Translations under genes and position numbers: made by a program
In this document: positions 12,843-57,987 of the stretch, one piece after another
Layout of the letters: each line of letters begins with the position of its first letter
Position numbering within the stretch: the stretch's first letter is position 1
The notes under the pieces: model-generated
Seen by the model: the letters and a program-made list of their open reading frames with translations, nothing else
What the model was told of the DNA's origin: nothing
The model's database searches: none
IMG/VR virus record: IMGVR_UViG_3300024348_000008
Direction: 5' to 3' (one strand)
DNA from: a virus
DNA: 64,000 bases

Positions 12843-13792
12843 TTACAGGAACATTTAATAAAATTCCTAAAAAACGTAATAGTCATGGATATGGATGGGC
12901 CAGAACTTGGGCAGAGAATTTGGATTGTGAAATTAATTATGATGGTGATCCTACAGATTTATTATATTTAGATCATGGTGTTAATTTCGGAGGATCTCTA
13001 AACTTATTTGCTGGATTTAATGAAGATTTAAAGAAAAGAATAGATAACTTTTTAAAAGCTAACGTTGTATATTCTTTAGATATTGATATGCCAGATTATG
13101 GAGCAATGTTAAAGAAAAGAAAAGACGTAAAAGATAAAGAATGGTGTGATATAATTTCAGACAAATGCGCACAAGCTATACCATTAAAATCAACAGATTT
13201 ATTAGAATTGAACTGGTTAACTATAGGCGATTCTCATACTGCAGCATATGCACGACCAAATTCAATGGTTATTAAAACAGATGGATTAACACTAAACGGA
13301 CAAATTAATAGTAATTTTGAATATATTCAATCTCATATCAAAGAATGTAACCCAAAGGGTATAACTATGGTATTTGGTAATATCGATATAAGACATCATA
13401 TATGTAGACTTAATATCGATCCAACAGAAATGCTTACCAAATGGAGAAACTTTGGATTATTGTTAGAACATAAAGGAATATCTGTTGAATATTCTACTCC
13501 ATGGCCAATTGAACATGAAGATCGAAAATTACCAAAAACTGGATATTATAAAAATCAACCATTTTGGGGAACAAGAGATGAAAGAATATCAGCATTAAAT
13601 CAATGGATTTTAATAATGGATACATTAGGAATGAAAAGAATTAAATATCCAGATGATTGGTTTTTGTTAAACGGTGAACGTTATGCTAAAGAAAAAATGG
13701 AAAATACATCGTCTGTACACCTCTCACCTGAGATGTACAGAAGAAAAAATTGGGGAAATAACCATGTACAATTGTCTCAATTTATGGTATAA
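12839..13792 (+). CDS. Protein with C-terminal SGNH/GDSL-like domain
   Basis: IGDSH, GNID.RHH, SVHLSP motifs. Confidence 0.55.
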   Translation: MITGTFNKIPKKRNSHGYGWARTWAENLDCEINYDGDPTDLLYLDHGVNFGGSLNLFAGFNEDLKKRIDNFLKANVVYSLDIDMPDYGAMLKKRKDVKDKEWCDIISDKCAQAIPLKSTDLLELNWLTIGDSHTAAYARPNSMVIKTDGLTLNGQINSNFEYIQSHIKECNPKGITMVFGNIDIRHHICRLNIDPTEMLTKWRNFGLLLEHKGISVEYSTPWPIEHEDRKLPKTGYYKNQPFWGTRDERISALNQWILIMDTLGMKRIKYPDDWFLLNGERYAKEKMENTSSVHLSPEMYRRKNWGNNHVQLSQFMV

Positions 13793-13825: not shown

Positions 13826-14083
13826 ATGCCCTCAATAGATTTAAGACCTAGGAAAAACAAAAATCCTAAGGATAAAAGACAACCTAAACCAATGCCATTT
13901 GACGTTGCACTACGCAAATTTAAAAAAGCCGTCGAACGCGCTGGAATTATTCAAGAAGTAAAACGTAGAGAATTCTATGAAAAACCTACGGCTAAACGAA
14001 AACGTAAAAAAGCAGAAGCTGTAGCTCGAACCCGAAGGCAGCATGCTGCAAATGAATTAAAACCTAGAAACCACTGGAGGTAA
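13826..14083 (+). CDS. rpsU: Ribosomal protein bS21
   Basis: [11 protein letters not shown]...[18 protein letters not shown]. Confidence 0.95.
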
Positions 14084-17699: not shown

Positions 17700-18359
17700 T
17701 TGAACGTTAAACTTATATCATATTCGCAACCAACTGAAGAATTTCAACTAGAAGGAGATTTACTTCAGTTGGTTGCTTTTTGCGCAAGAGTCTCAAATCC
17801 TAAAGGTCAGGTTAATATTAAAACCGCCGAGAAACTTGTTAAATATTTAATTAAAAATAAACACTGGTCACCACTTGAAATGGTTAGTGTTTGCTTAGAG
17901 ATCGAAACAACTCGAGATATTGCTAGACAATTATTAAGACATCGATCTTTCTCTTTTCAAGAATACTCTCAAAGATATGCCGACGTCTCAGAATTGGGAG
18001 TTGCATTTACTACGCGAGAAGCTAGAATGCAAGACACAAAAAATAGACAAAATTCAATACCAGTTAAACATGATGAATCAATTAATTATATTTGGGAATC
18101 ATATCAAGAAGTAATTATTGAACGTTGTAAGAAAGCTTATGCTTGGGCACTAGAAGCAGGTATAGCAAAAGAACAAGCTAGAGCTGTTTTACCAGAAGGT
18201 TTAACAATGAGTAAAATGTATGTTAATGGAACTTTAAGATCGTGGATCCATTACGTAGAATTAAGATCTGCACATGGAACACAACAAGAACATATGGAAA
18301 TAGCAAAAGCTGTCGGTGATGTAATCTATAAAATCTTCCCCCTAGACGACATTATTTAG
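17700..18359 (+). CDS. thyX: Flavin-dependent thymidylate synthase
   Basis: HWSPLE, RHRSFSFQEYSQRY, EQARAVLP. Confidence 0.95.
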   Translation: MNVKLISYSQPTEEFQLEGDLLQLVAFCARVSNPKGQVNIKTAEKLVKYLIKNKHWSPLEMVSVCLEIETTRDIARQLLRHRSFSFQEYSQRYADVSELGVAFTTREARMQDTKNRQNSIPVKHDESINYIWESYQEVIIERCKKAYAWALEAGIAKEQARAVLPEGLTMSKMYVNGTLRSWIHYVELRSAHGTQQEHMEIAKAVGDVIYKIFPLDDII

Positions 18360-18405
18360 CATCTAATCAGATGCCCAAGCATCAGTTAGGCATCTGATTA
18401 GATGC
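18359..18405. repeat. Perfect 17-bp inverted repeat with self-complementary arms
   Basis: gcatctaatcagatgcc-N13-ggcatctgattagatgc. Confidence 0.9.
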
Positions 18406-18479: not shown

Positions 18480-18550
18480 TGTACAAATGCCCTAAAGTGT
18501 GGTATAATATACCTATATTAAAAAATAAAACACTGTAAGGAGTGAGTATG
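18480..18550 (+). promoter_or_regulatory. Early promoter cassette A (TGTACA-N17-TATAAT, leader, GTAAGGAGTG SD)
   Basis: Closely similar to cassettes at 50981, 51636 and 52916. Confidence 0.9.
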
Positions 18551-18940
18551 AAAGAAACAAAAATATTAGAAAAAGCAGTAAACCAGTTGCTTAAGACACT
18601 AAAACGTGAAAGTGATAAAAACTTTCCTGACTTAGCTAAGTATACTAATTTTACTGCAGAATCTGGTAGAAAATTTATTAAAATTATTGAGCAAGATACG
18701 TTCAATGGTGAAATTAGTCAAAGAGTTTGGGGATTTATTAATATTTCTGAATTTACAAAAGAAAGAAAAATGGCATCTACAACAAAAGTTGTTACTTTCA
18801 AAGAAGGAGATGTTTTAATGGCTAATGGATGGAGAGCACCAGCTCTTAATGCACCTCGAGGTAATATATTAGATGGCTATAATATTACAAAAGTTAATAG
18901 ATATGGTCCTTCTTATATAAGTTCAAACCGAACTTTATAA
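18548..18940 (+). CDS. Early hypothetical protein (family common in T4-like phages)
   Basis: GRKFIKI, VWGFI, GD.L.A.GW.APA motifs. Confidence 0.7.
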   Translation: MKETKILEKAVNQLLKTLKRESDKNFPDLAKYTNFTAESGRKFIKIIEQDTFNGEISQRVWGFINISEFTKERKMASTTKVVTFKEGDVLMANGWRAPALNAPRGNILDGYNITKVNRYGPSYISSNRTL

Positions 18941-50980: not shown

Positions 50981-51052
50981 TGTACAAACATGTAAAACTA
51001 TGGTATAATATACCTATATTAAAAAATAAAACACTGTAAGGAGTGTCTAATG
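50981..51052 (+). promoter_or_regulatory. Early promoter cassette B
   Basis: TGTACA-N17-TATAAT, A-rich UP region, GTAAGGAGTG SD. Confidence 0.9.
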
Positions 51053-51574
51053 AAAGTATCAAAAGAATTATTAAACCACATCGCGGCTGAAAATGCTAAA
51101 ACCAGAGCTTGGATTGCTGAAGATCCTAAAAATCGTTGGGCAGGACTTTATCCTGAAACCGTAAAGCATTGGGAAGATCGTGGTATCTTTACTCTTGCCC
51201 AGCTCGAAAGAGATGAGTTAATTACTCACATTTACGAAGGTCATAAGGATGCTTATGGCACGAAAGGTCGTCATTATGACTTTGACGCAATGTCTCTCGA
51301 GCAGCTTAAAGCTGAAGCTGATTCAATCAGCGTTGCAATTTCTGCAGAAAGGGAGAGAATGGAAGCTCAAGAAAGAGCTAATATTTCGAACTTCGAAAAA
51401 CAGATTGCTGATCTTGCAGAAATGGGTGCATCTCGAAAAGATGCTATTCGTTGGATGCTTGAAGCTGAAGGTCTCAAAGACGAGTATGATGTTGGTTATG
51501 TCCAATATACCTTCGGTCTTCCTTATAATTATATAACGGAAGAATTTACCTCTGCATTGAAAGAGGCTGCATAA
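51050..51574 (+). CDS. Early hypothetical protein
   Basis: Strong SD; HKDAYG.K.R motif. Confidence 0.75.
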   Translation: MKVSKELLNHIAAENAKTRAWIAEDPKNRWAGLYPETVKHWEDRGIFTLAQLERDELITHIYEGHKDAYGTKGRHYDFDAMSLEQLKAEADSISVAISAERERMEAQERANISNFEKQIADLAEMGASRKDAIRWMLEAEGLKDEYDVGYVQYTFGLPYNYITEEFTSALKEAA

Positions 51575-51635: not shown

Positions 51636-51705
51636 TGTACAAACATGTCAAACTGTGGTATAATATACCTATATTAAAAAATAAATCATGTAAGGAGTGA
51701 TTATG
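51636..51705 (+). promoter_or_regulatory. Early promoter cassette C
   Basis: Same cassette; palindrome tataacc-cta-ggttata at 51579-51595 upstream. Confidence 0.9.
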
Positions 51706-52915: not shown

Positions 52916-52982
52916 TGTACAAACGTGTTAAAATAGGGTATAATATCCCTATGTTAAATAAATCATGTAAGGAGTGAGTATG
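52916..52982 (+). promoter_or_regulatory. Early promoter cassette D
   Basis: TGTACA-N17-TATAAT with GTAAGGAGTG SD. Confidence 0.88.
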
Positions 52983-53471: not shown

Positions 53472-53906
53472 ATGAAAATTATATTTGATGTAGATGGAAC
53501 TCTTATGGATATAGAACATAGGCGACACCATCTACAAAATGGTAATAACGATTGGGAAGCATTTAACAATGCAATGGAGCATGATGTTCCAAACTTTCCA
53601 ATTATGCATATTGCATTTGACATGTCTAGACAAGGTCATGAGATTGTTGTGTGTTCTGCAAGAAATGAAAGACACAGAGAAATCACTGAAAAACAAATCA
53701 GAGATTGTGGTGTAAAGTTTGGTCATTGTTTCCTAAGGGAAGATGATGATTTTAGACCTGATGAGGTATTCAAGAAAGATGTTCTTGATGCTCTTATCGC
53801 TCAAGATTGGAAACCTGATCTTGTATTTGACGATCGTAATAGTGTTGTTGACATGTGGAGACGAAATGGTCTTGTATGTGTTCAAGTTGCAGAAGGAGAT
53901 TTTTAA
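53472..53906 (+). CDS. PseT-like HAD 3'-phosphatase domain (stand-alone)
   Basis: FDVDGTL, SAR, D.RPD..K, VFDDR..VV.MWR..G, QVA.GDF. Confidence 0.88.
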   Translation: MKIIFDVDGTLMDIEHRRHHLQNGNNDWEAFNNAMEHDVPNFPIMHIAFDMSRQGHEIVVCSARNERHREITEKQIRDCGVKFGHCFLREDDDFRPDEVFKKDVLDALIAQDWKPDLVFDDRNSVVDMWRRNGLVCVQVAEGDF

Positions 53907-54133: not shown

Positions 54134-54433
54134 ATGAGCAAAGAAGAATCTCAGGAGAAGATGATAGTGGGACAATACACTGAAATTGTAGATCGGAGAA
54201 GAAAAATGATTAAAGCAGAAAAATGGGCAAAAGGAATTAAAACATTCCATGCTCATAGTCTAGATTCAATGTACTACGACCATGGTCGTAAAGATGGAAG
54301 TGTAATAGATATTGAATATAATAGTGGTTTAATTGAAAGGACAATTAAAGCTACTGGAGAAAAAGTATACTTTGGTACTAAATTAGAAGGAACAGAATTA
54401 CTTAGAATATGGGAAAGACGAAATATTTCCTAG
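54134..54433 (+). CDS. Hypothetical protein
   Basis: ORF in early block; start uncertain. Confidence 0.55.
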   Translation: MSKEESQEKMIVGQYTEIVDRRRKMIKAEKWAKGIKTFHAHSLDSMYYDHGRKDGSVIDIEYNSGLIERTIKATGEKVYFGTKLEGTELLRIWERRNIS

Positions 54434-54438
54434 GCTTT

Positions 54439-54512
54439 GGCCGGTACGATGGACCTTTCGCGCAATATCGTGCGGACACTCCTTACGAACCATCGTATCG
54501 GCCATCTTTTTA
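54439..54512 (+). ncRNA. Candidate structured RNA/terminator with anti-SD loop
   Basis: 14-bp stem ggccggtacgatgg/ccatcgtatcggcc, inner cgca/tgcg hairpin, unpaired GACACTCCTTAC, T-run after stem. Confidence 0.55.
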
Positions 54513-54522
54513 ATATGATAAT

Positions 54523-54966
54523 ATGATATATAAACAAACAAAAGTCACTTCAGAATTTATTAAACACAGAGATAAGCTAGCATTAGATTTATCTGGTGAG
54601 AATACAACCTTTAGAGCAGATTTTGAGTGGCCAGAATGGTATCTTGGTAAGGTAATTCCTAAAGAATCTTTACATGAAAGGTTTTATGGTTATTCATATG
54701 ATACAACCCACCCTAGTTATGGAAAATGCGAATTTAAATATCTTGCAAAAACTGGTAAAGTACATATAGGTTTATTTACGCAGAGACAACAATTTGATAG
54801 TTTTATATTTTGGAATTGGGAGAAAAAATTCGGTGAATTATCAGAAGGAGATCTCATAGATTTTGAACTGATTGATGTGGTCCCTAGGAAGTTTGTATTA
54901 CCTCTAATAGAGTATACAACATTTAATTATAATAAACATGTACAAACACTTAAAACTGTGGTATAA
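54523..54966 (+). CDS. Hypothetical protein
   Basis: 147 aa; YD...EFK could be nuclease-like. Confidence 0.55.
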   Translation: MIYKQTKVTSEFIKHRDKLALDLSGENTTFRADFEWPEWYLGKVIPKESLHERFYGYSYDTTHPSYGKCEFKYLAKTGKVHIGLFTQRQQFDSFIFWNWEKKFGELSEGDLIDFELIDVVPRKFVLPLIEYTTFNYNKHVQTLKTVV

Positions 54967-54967
54967 T
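54939..54967 (+). promoter_or_regulatory. Early promoter TGTACA-N17-TATAAT
   Basis: Repeated motif. Confidence 0.85.
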
Positions 54968-54984
54968 ATACTCAAGGATTAATA

Positions 54985-56130: not shown

Positions 56131-56384
56131 ACAAAAAAACAGCAATAGATCCATTAGAACATAAAATTATGACTAAGAAACGGTTTAATGTTGCTGTAGA
56201 AATGTTTGTCAATAATCATAATATGTCATATCTAGATGCTATGACACATGTAATTGAAAGTAGAGGAATGGATTATTCTAACATTAAAAAGTTATTATCT
56301 CCATCTCTAAAAGCAAAACTCGAAGCAGAAGCTATCGAAAATAATTTAGTAAAATTAAAAAGAGGAAACAAACTACCAATATAA
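56127..56384 (+). CDS. gp33: Late transcription coactivator
   Basis: SYLDA, LK.KLEAEA...N, KLPI; precedes gp59 and gp32. Confidence 0.88.
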   Translation: MNKKTAIDPLEHKIMTKKRFNVAVEMFVNNHNMSYLDAMTHVIESRGMDYSNIKKLLSPSLKAKLEAEAIENNLVKLKRGNKLPI

Positions 56385-56977
56385 TGGATCCTTTTGACTC
56401 TTATAAACTTTATAATTCTTTAAAACTCCATTTTGAGAATGATTCGTATGACGCATTTAAATATAACTTTAAATCAAATGTTACACCTAATTCATTCTTT
56501 AAAAGGAAAGACAAGTTTTTCTTTGCCAAGGTTGCAAAAAACCATGGTAAGGAATTAAAAATGTATTTTGTATCAAACTTTATAAATGATGTTCCATACA
56601 TCGGTGATATGATTAATGATGAAGGCGAAAAGAACTTTATGAATATGAAAAAAATTCATGAAAGTCTCTCAAGAACCTTTGAAAATGATATAAATACTAT
56701 TGCTGATTTGATCGATGGAGGCGAAACCTTTAATTCATTTTTTGAAAGCAAGGATAGTCAACATCCTCGAATCATCAAGATGTGGTTGGAAGAAGATATT
56801 ACACTGGAAACAGTATGTATTCTAAATGCCATATTAGGGTTTGTAGTTCGTGAATCTAAAAATATTAGTGAGACCATTATGTGGCCGAATATAGTATTAA
56901 AGATCACGAAATACACCCCCTTCATTAACTTTGACCACGATAAGTCTGTCAATATAATGAGAAAAATTATACTATGA
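56384..56977 (+). CDS. gp59: Helicase loader
   Basis: LKLHF...YD.FKY, F.KRKD.FFF, I.LET, KY.PF. Confidence 0.92.
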   Translation: MDPFDSYKLYNSLKLHFENDSYDAFKYNFKSNVTPNSFFKRKDKFFFAKVAKNHGKELKMYFVSNFINDVPYIGDMINDEGEKNFMNMKKIHESLSRTFENDINTIADLIDGGETFNSFFESKDSQHPRIIKMWLEEDITLETVCILNAILGFVVRESKNISETIMWPNIVLKITKYTPFINFDHDKSVNIMRKIIL

Positions 56978-57042: not shown

Positions 57043-57933
57043 ATGTCTTTTGCAAACTTAAAGAGCTCGCGAAGCTCGTCTATCGACAAACTCGTACAAG
57101 CAGCGGAAGCTGTTTCATCAAAAGCAGAAACCAAATCCTACGCGGATGATCGTTTCTGGAAACCAACTCAAGATAAAGCCGGTAATGGTTACGCAGTAAT
57201 CAGATTTTTACCTGCGAAAGAAGGTGAGGATTTACCTTGGGTTCGATATTGGGACCATGGCTTTAAAGGCCCGAATGGTTTATGGTATATCGAAAACTCG
57301 CTAACTTCTATCAATCAGCCTGATCCTGTTTCAGAAATGAATTCAGAATTATGGAATACTGGTCGAGATGAAGATAAGCAAACAGCTCGTGAGAGAAAAC
57401 GTAGGTTACATCATGTATCTAATATTATGGTTGTTTCAGATTCTGCTAATCCACAGAATGAAGGAAAAGTTTTTCTTTATAAATTTGGTAAGAAGATCTT
57501 TGACAAAGTGATGGATATTATGCAACCTCAATTCGCTGACGAACAACCTATAAATCCTTTTGATTTTTGGGAAGGTGCTGATTTCAGAATTAAAATTCGC
57601 AAAGTAGAAGGTTGGACTAATTACGATAAGTCTGATTTTGCTACAACATCTGCCGTCTGTGATGGTGATGATGCGAGACTTGAAGAGCTTTATGGAAAAC
57701 TCCATTCGCTTAACGAGTTTACTGATGCTGCCAATTACAAAACTTATGATGAGCTTAAAGCTAAAATGAATAGAGTACTTGGTATCACCGCTGGAGTTAG
57801 TATGGAAGCTACTGAAATGCCTTCTGCGCCTGCAGTCACAACAAATTTTGTTGAGTCTCCGGCTATTGAATCTGCCAGTGCAGGAGAAGAAGATACGTTA
57901 AGTTACTTCGCGAAACTCGCACAAGATAGTTAA
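57043..57933 (+). CDS. gp32: Single-stranded DNA-binding protein
   Basis: DDRFWKP, GNGYAVIRFLP, WYIENS, FGKKIFDK, acidic tail. Confidence 0.97.
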   Translation: MSFANLKSSRSSSIDKLVQAAEAVSSKAETKSYADDRFWKPTQDKAGNGYAVIRFLPAKEGEDLPWVRYWDHGFKGPNGLWYIENSLTSINQPDPVSEMNSELWNTGRDEDKQTARERKRRLHHVSNIMVVSDSANPQNEGKVFLYKFGKKIFDKVMDIMQPQFADEQPINPFDFWEGADFRIKIRKVEGWTNYDKSDFATTSAVCDGDDARLEELYGKLHSLNEFTDAANYKTYDELKAKMNRVLGITAGVSMEATEMPSAPAVTTNFVESPAIESASAGEEDTLSYFAKLAQDS

Positions 57934-57961
57934 ACAGAAAAAAAACTTTTAGTTTTTTACG

Positions 57962-57987
57962 AGGCCGCGGGAAGCGGCCTTTTTTTT
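57962..57987 (+). terminator. Rho-independent terminator
   Basis: aggccgc-gggaa-gcggcct followed by T-run, at a convergent junction. Confidence 0.88.

Follow-up and report, generated by a model that had tools for sequence, protein, structure and literature searches.

Genomic context of the element

The window analysed here is a 64,000-nucleotide stretch of viral DNA (IMG/VR record IMGVR_UViG_3300024348_000008). It belongs to an AT-rich (~31% GC) T4-like phage that encodes gp59 at 56384-56977 and gp32 at 57043-57933. The closest deposited gp32 is that of Phage C48C1, with 56% identity, followed by those of the cyanomyoviruses.

Early promoters are repeated throughout the window: at least 13 near-identical sites, composed of CATGTACAAA, a 17-nt spacer and TGGTATAATAT, are found between 2626 and 54967 (for example at 18480, 50981, 51636, 52916 and 54939). 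Four promoters run into the same leader, which ends in GUAAGGAGUG and is separated from the ATG by 3-4 nt (Table 1). The remaining genes have short Shine-Dalgarno (SD) sequences (AGGA, GGAG or GAGG) or none, the latter amounting to about a third of the genes by a crude count, and the canonical GGAGGTG occurs only once, at the 50325 gene. Within the window, the long GGAG-UG leader is therefore special.

T4-like phages carry promoter-stem-loop (PeSL) cassettes, and the four leaders follow the PeSL layout of an AT-rich upstream region, -35 and -10 boxes, an SD and a start codon (PMC2839356, PMC4122927). They are copies of one ~90-nt promoter-leader cassette of the PeSL type, which accounts for their identity, and thus the agreement among the four leaders is not independent evidence. 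A near-perfect 20-bp hairpin (18359-18405) sits directly 5' of the 18480 promoter, the classic PeSL position, and has no sequence kinship with the element described below.

The phage also encodes a ribosomal protein bS21 (13826-14083; Pfam Ribosomal_S21, 6.6e-18) behind the early promoter at 13765, which is relevant to any model that touches the anti-SD region of the ribosome. Another gene, at 53472-53906 in the same early unit as the element, encodes the HAD-type phosphatase domain of a polynucleotide kinase-phosphatase (PF25109, 4.6e-32) and lacks the kinase part. In T4, polynucleotide kinase assists the breakdown of early mRNAs cut by RegB (PMC3014915).

The element lies on the + strand between a 99-aa ORF and a 147-aa ORF, in the transcription unit headed by cassette D. 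The 147-aa protein has no Pfam or PHROG match, and its AF2 model (pLDDT 69) has no PDB match in Foldseek at E <= 0.001.

Table 1 Positions of the element, its neighbouring ORFs and the early leaders in the window
Feature	Position	Strand	Description
Distant fourth leader	18535-18544	+	10-nt complement; 130-aa gene at 18548-18940
174-aa early gene leader	51036-51047	+	12-nt exact complement GUAAGGAGUGUC; gene at 51050-51574; promoter at 50981-51009
94-aa early gene leader	51690-51699	+	10-nt complement; promoter at 51636-51664
Cassette D leader	52967-52976	+	10-nt complement; heads the transcription unit containing the element; promoter at 52916-52944
Upstream 99-aa ORF	54134-54433	+	TAG stop at 54431-54433, 4 nt before the outer stem
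P1 5' arm (outer stem)	54438-54452	+	pairs with 54490-54504; 15 bp, one G-U pair
5' spacer	54453-54456	+	4 nt, between P1 5' arm and P2
P2 inner hairpin	54457-54476	+	arms 54457-63 and 54470-76; 7 bp; loop AAUAUC
Single-stranded anti-SD strand CACUCCUUACGAA	54477-54489	+	13 nt; left open by P1 and P2
Invariant core CACUCCUUA	54477-54485	+	9 nt, inside the anti-SD strand
P1 3' arm	54490-54504	+	second half of the 15-bp outer stem
U-rich tract UCUUUUUAAU	54505-54514	+	terminator-like; T-run within it at 54507-54511
Mini-ORF ATG ATA ATA TGA	54515-54526	+	three codons; begins at the gene-start position of relatives; stop overlaps the real ATG (ATGA)
147-aa ORF	54523-54966	+	no SD and no promoter of its own; next promoter at 54939
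Next early promoter	54939-54967	+	inside the 3' end of the 147-aa ORF; drives the 381-aa gene

The element folds into two helices that leave a strand open

The + strand RNA of 54430-54520 has a predicted fold energy of -34.3 kcal/mol, compared with -19.3 +/- 2.8 kcal/mol in shuffled sequences (z -5.3). The folded element spans 54438-54504 and consists of a 15-bp outer stem (P1) and a 7-bp inner hairpin (P2). A previous reading made from the sequence alone had described a 14-bp hairpin with an open loop. The stem holds, at 15 bp, whereas the interior is not one open loop: the 37 nt enclosed by P1 contain P2, a second conserved hairpin, together with a conserved 13-nt strand.

In the fold model, the 10-nt core of this strand, CACUCCUUAC, is unpaired with probabilities of 0.57-0.99, and opening it costs 0.5 kcal/mol. 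The same reading had taken 12 nt (54475-86) to be unpaired. The 10-nt core is indeed open, but G54475 and A54476 are mostly engaged in weak pairs of P2, with unpaired probabilities of 0.05 and 0.19, respectively.

The GC-rich P1 is directly followed by UCUUUUUAAU, and this arrangement of stem and U-tract is the layout of an intrinsic terminator. The element does not have the short loop (about 3-8 nt) of a simple terminator hairpin, and a consensus terminator scan gave no call. Its U-tract is weaker than that of the clear terminator at 57961-57981, and relatives of the element have U-tracts that are less U-rich than that of the window, with flanks judged by eye. The terminator at 57961-57981, located after gp32 at the switch to minus-strand genes, is of the textbook kind, with an 8-bp GC stem and T8, and provides an internal reference for a plain terminator of this phage.

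The element represents an RNA family of marine phages

Relatives were fetched through metagenome homologues of the downstream 147-aa ORF, giving 11 IMG/VR loci and 12 JGI loci. The element is present 5' of the 147-aa homologue in every lineage except one. Seven distinct variants, from marine viral and metagenome contigs, were obtained: the window, L001/L130, L005, L006/L133, L008/L137, L010/L011 and L136. Each variant, folded singly, gives P1, P2 and the open strand.

In the alignment of the seven variants, compensatory changes are found in 11 of the 14 aligned P1 pairs and in four of the five P2 pairs, and 15 pairs show double changes. Paired cells make up 97% of the alignment at these positions, against 70% in shuffles, and sliding the partner columns by 1-3 lowers the value to 32-42%. 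The G-U pairs are compatible with the + strand alone, which identifies it as the folded strand.

The stems have little sequence in common among the variants and the flanking proteins are 55-78% identical, yet the core CACUCCUUA is identical in all seven. In the relatives, the strand reads CACUCCUUAUC, and the bases 5' of its CAC differ among variants (GA, AA or GG). The P2 stem of the relatives has 5-6 bp, and six variants share the P2 loop GCAAY. In L010, an additional hairpin is inserted 3' of the conserved strand.

A covariance model (R1) finds one copy per contig and none elsewhere in the window. Pattern scans of IMG/VR gave mostly chance matches, of which the covariance model retained the known clade alone. 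When the deposited phages of INPHARED were searched with blastn, nothing was found for the flanking region or for the element. Rfam 15 gave no match at the gathering threshold for the whole window, and for the element only chance-level matches (best 19.5 bits versus a gathering score of 44; lowest E-value 0.19).

Several known classes can be set aside. A described RNA family, be it a riboswitch or an r-protein leader, does not fit the Rfam result, and ARAGORN finds no cloverleaf in the window that would indicate a tRNA, tmRNA or tRNA-like structure. A PeSL stem-loop is not compatible with an element that is single-copy in the 64 kb and on each related contig, far larger than PeSL stems and conserved in its interior, and after which the next promoter stands 435 nt downstream instead of following directly. 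A mobile inverted-repeat element is likewise rejected, as there is a single copy whose arms covary rather than conserve sequence. On the minus strand, GTAAGGAGTGTC could be read as the SD of a TTG-started mini-peptide, but the peptides are not conserved by eye and the G-U pairs fit the + strand alone.

Together, these comparisons provide good support for a conserved structured RNA of ~70 nt with one strand under strong purifying selection. As far as structure and conservation are concerned, its assignment to a previously undescribed RNA family is solid.

The open strand is complementary to the leaders of early genes

The 12 nt at 54475-54486 (GACACTCCTTAC) are the exact reverse complement of GTAAGGAGTGTC at 51036-51047, in agreement with the sequence-only reading. 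That reading had also matched a 10-nt core to all four cassette leaders, and this match is confirmed: the 64-kb window has four + strand copies of the 10-mer GTAAGGAGTG, at 18535, 51036, 51690 and 52967, and a single minus-strand copy at 54477-54486. The mean in shuffled sequences is 0.05 matches, and five matches were reached in 0 of 100 shuffles. Four early-promoter leaders thus carry GUAAGGAGUG, to which the 10-nt core of the element is reverse complementary, and at 51036 the complementarity extends to 12 nt.

The same relation holds beyond the window. The motif AAGGAGUG is found in 15 distinct leaders across five lineages, within the pattern (G/A)(U/A)AAGGAGUG. Relatives with enough upstream sequence have two or three consecutive early cassettes and then the element 1-2 kb past the last of them, and relatives preserve the order in which the element comes after three leader cassettes. 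In a duplex scan of each locus, the leaders rank near the top of the predicted partners of the strand in each of the five lineages with upstream sequence, and in three of these they occupy the first three places.

Pairing energies were estimated from duplex and opening energies, because RNAcofold cannot place intermolecular pairs within an enclosed loop and gave no complex. In the window, the best predicted target is the leader at 51036 (-23.4 kcal/mol). The perfect-match duplexes have energies of -14.5 to -19.1 kcal/mol, which leaves a net -10 to -12.5 kcal/mol after opening costs, compared with -9 to -12 kcal/mol for the leader with the 16S tail motif. Net pairing of the strand with the leaders is therefore predicted to be better than pairing of the leaders with the 16S tail.

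The leader reads GGAG-UG and the loop CA-CUCC, where the canonical pair would be GGAGGUG and CACCUCC, so that the same one-base deletion is present on both sides. This shared departure is suggestive and speaks for a strand fitted to the leader of the phage rather than copied from the rRNA. An exact anti-SD copy, of the type found in P6 of OLE RNA, is rejected because CACUCCUUA is one C short.

The loop and the leaders had been expected to covary across relatives. What the comparison shows is co-conservation, in seven element variants and 15 leaders: the 9-nt core never varies on either side and no compensatory change is seen. A possible counter-example is L005, which keeps a perfect element, yet its cassette-D leader is AAAAAGAGUAUAUUAUG and lacks the motif; the other leaders of L005 lie beyond the contig. 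It also counts against a role in masking the leaders that any anti-SD-like strand matches any strong SD to some degree.

A further match was noted in the relatives L130, L006, L008, L011, L005 and L137. Here the 381-aa gene, which follows the element at a distance of about 500 nt, has the leader sequence GAUAAGGA, complementary over 8 nt to the 3' half of the loop, UCCUUAUC. The window departs from this on both sides, with UUAC in the strand and CUCAAGGA in the 381-aa-gene leader (54971-54984). The GAUAAGGA/UCCUUAUC match may point to an additional target, or it may be fortuitous.

The element and the leader motif are present and absent together

The element and the leader motif co-occur in this small clade of uncultured marine T4-like phages, and both are absent from every outgroup examined. 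Neither was found in the whole genomes of HTVC008M and C48C1, in which the element was searched for with the covariance model R1. Searching with the 174-aa cassette gene brought up three lineages at a greater distance; their leaders differ, and the element is missing within 7 kb.

The same is seen within the clade. L132 has no element, and its three leaders have weak SDs and lack the motif. L005 and L132 form a mosaic, nearly identical over the first ~1.1 kb and then visibly more diverged. Comparison of L131 (1330-1360) and L132 (3630-3660) with L005 (1842-1940) shows the element as a clean presence or absence of ~87 nt between a stop and the next start. In L131 and L132, where it is missing, the two genes of the junction overlap by ATGA.

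The element occupies a conserved junction between two genes

The sequence-only reading had placed the element at the likely 3' end of the cassette D transcript, before a T-run. The T-run is there, but just downstream starts an ORF with neither promoter nor SD. The element is thus intercistronic rather than just the end of a transcript. As the 147-aa ORF has no promoter of its own, at least some read-through of the element is required, which places it within at least a part of the mRNAs.

The layout of this junction is conserved, while the identity of the gene upstream varies between lineages. In the relatives, 3-7 nt separate the upstream stop from P1; the exception is L006, with 45 nt by script, where the stop may not be the true one. 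On the other side, an ATG without an SD stands 9-13 nt after P1 in every variant, before either the 147-aa gene or an unrelated 54-58-aa ORF. In the window, ATG codons begin 10 to 18 nt past the stem.

The 54-58-aa ORF, which contains the motif DKRWQDNSDGWVK, lies between the element and the 147-aa gene in L006 (5479-5655) and L010 (2393-2560). Like the 147-aa gene, it begins without an SD, about 9 nt past the hairpin. In L137 (630-640), the ATGA that closes a mini-ORF ATG ATA TGA contains the true start of the 147-aa gene, as is the case for the mini-ORF of the window. Such mini-ORFs of two or three codons before the 147-aa gene may serve re-initiation, or may have arisen by chance, the sequence being AT-rich.

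Two simple junction mechanisms were rejected. No SD is present within the flanks of any variant, which speaks against sequestration of a nearby SD in cis. Stop read-through, a frameshift or a hop of the gene-60 type would not fit L001, where an in-frame stop follows at once, although by eye the frame of the window stays open through the element; neither a take-off/landing codon pair nor a slippery site is conserved.

The conserved order of stop, 3-7 nt, hairpin, 9-13 nt and ATG hints at a local role at the junction, beyond any masking of the leaders. One such role would be that of a local intercistronic device: a partial intrinsic terminator, an attenuator, or a stability or processing hairpin between cassette D and the 147-aa gene, with the strand serving as a site for a nuclease or an RNA-binding protein. 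All variants have a stable GC-rich stem followed by a U-rich tract, and the ORF downstream has no promoter. In most variants, a ribosome terminating at the stop 3-7 nt before P1 would melt the base of the stem, which fits translation-coupled read-through. P1, the asymmetric internal loop and P2 may also resemble the RNase III sites of T7, and L005 retains the element although its D leader is without the motif. Against this, terminators and stabiliser hairpins need no invariant strand of 9-11 nt, and the U-tract is just moderate in several variants. A local device would also leave unexplained the exact complement of a special leader and the joint phyletic distribution. We consider it unlikely that the element is a device of this kind.

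The position of the ATG suggests another local role, in translation initiation of the following ORF. The base of the hairpin lies about 10 nt 5' of an SD-less AUG, where an SD/anti-SD helix would normally be, and the element could join stop and start for re-initiation or for stand-by loading of 30S subunits on the U-rich spacer. The distance to the ATG is kept whichever ORF follows, none of these starts has an SD, and the mini-ORF of the window sits at this very place, ending in ATGA on the real start. The ATGA overlap in L131 and L132 further indicates that the junction is normally coupled in translation. The same two loci show, on the other hand, that the gene works without the element; short spacers and the absence of an SD are common in this compact AT-rich genome, and an anti-SD-like strand cannot pair with the anti-SD of the ribosome itself. 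We know of no precedent for such a module, and regard it as quite unlikely.

The likeness to the 3' end of 16S rRNA is limited

The succession of a hairpin, 2-4 nt and CACUCCUUA resembles, in our reading, helix 45 of 16S rRNA with its tail. The element might thus be a decoy of the 16S rRNA 3' end that binds a protein of the ribosomal platform, either alone or as a duplex with a leader, and retunes ribosomes between the early and late phases. One candidate protein would be the bS21 encoded by the phage (Pfam match given above). OLE RNA offers a parallel, being a non-ribosomal RNA with an anti-SD-like sequence and an SD/anti-SD mimic that binds bS21 (PMC12054373). The two RNAs differ in that the CCUCCU of OLE P6 is exact and forms pairs in cis with an SD-like strand, whereas the strand of the element is unpaired, one C short and would pair in trans.

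Most details argue against a decoy. The strand is not an anti-SD copy, as it has CUCC and not CCUCC and matches the phage leader instead of the rRNA. The bases 5' of CAC vary, the P2 loop GCAAY is not that of helix 45, and the bS21 gene lies 40 kb from the element. A 16-mer scan of GTDB for a natural 16S tail with CAC-UCCUU stayed at chance level, with one of 120 matches at a 16S end. We therefore judge a decoy of this kind to be very unlikely.

A proposed model for the shut-off of early translation

We propose a model in which an extended anti-SD strand, presented by a terminator-like scaffold, base-pairs with the leaders of early genes, shutting off their translation. It is the reading that we tentatively favour on sequence grounds, with considerable reserve. 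It starts from what the comparison shows: a fold supported by covariation, a strand that is invariant and accessible, exact complementarity and a joint phyletic distribution.

According to this model, the structured RNA would be made as part of early transcripts. The covarying helices P1 and P2 would hold a pyrimidine strand of 10-13 nt open, as an extended anti-SD matched exactly to the long SD UAAGGAGUG. Its targets would be the three consecutive cassettes just upstream and the fourth cassette 36 kb away. The RNA could accumulate as a terminator-protected 3' fragment or as a stable decay intermediate. Pairing of the strand with the leaders could take place in trans, or in cis within a read-through transcript that includes the leaders as well as the element; it would cover the SD and thus block binding of the 30S subunit. 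The early genes with the strongest translation would thereby be shut off, as a form of feedback or as a timer. Accumulation of the RNA, pairing in vivo and repression are what we infer from these features. The stoichiometry is unfavourable for action in trans, unless the hairpin RNA outlives the mRNAs.

It is tempting to go further and to speculate about an early-translation switch made of RNA only. One terminator-embedded anti-SD RNA would have co-evolved with a private, non-canonical super-SD (UAAGGAG-UG). The super-SD would first let immediate-early mRNAs monopolise the few ribosomes of the host, and the RNA would then free ribosomes for later genes that have weak SDs or are leaderless; the leader-element duplex might also engage the phage bS21 as an SD/anti-SD mimic. 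We regard this extended version as rather improbable.

Discussion

Structured phage RNAs that mask the ribosome-binding sites of phage genes are known from the c4 antisense RNA of P1/P7 (RF01695) and the sar RNA of P22, which lie in an operon array with their targets. The element shares with c4 and sar an exposed strand complementary to the ribosome-binding region of early or regulatory phage genes. It has no sequence or structure match to c4, and RF01695 is not among its weak Rfam matches. In addition, c4 uses two loops and acts on targets downstream of itself, whereas the element has one strand and three to four repeated leader copies upstream. The host and phage group also differ from those of c4 and sar, as the element comes from a marine T4-like myovirus.

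A second group of known regulators comprises DicF, other sRNAs derived from prophages or 3' UTRs and sRNAs with C-rich loops (RsaE/RoxS, RNAIII), in which a pyrimidine-rich seed on a hairpin or terminator pairs with the SDs of several mRNAs. DicF shares with the element an intercistronic position, in its case within a phage operon. The predicted targets of the element are repeated leaders of the phage itself and not host genes, and its seed is an exact match of 9-12 nt instead of a short C-run.

T4 RegB has the same logical role as the proposed mechanism: soon after infection, it functionally inactivates early mRNAs with GGAG in their SD (PMC3014915). RegB does so as a protein, a nuclease cleaving GG|AG, whereas the element would act as an RNA that masks the site. 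The element is thus a new RNA family with a proposed mechanism of a known kind in a new setting, the marine T4-like phages. The carriers are probably pelagimyophage-like.

Whatever its mechanism, a compact RNA of ~70 nt with a 10-nt seed is suited to in vitro and reporter tests without the uncultured host. If the pairing is real, the element would be, as far as could be found, the first RNA regulator described in open-ocean T4-like phages. It would be an RNA answer to over-efficient early messages, a problem that T4 solves with the RegB protein. It would also mean that the phage has evolved a private SD/anti-SD pair beside that of the ribosome itself, which bears on how phages equipped with bS21 and further ribosome-directed genes take over translation where the host has very few ribosomes.
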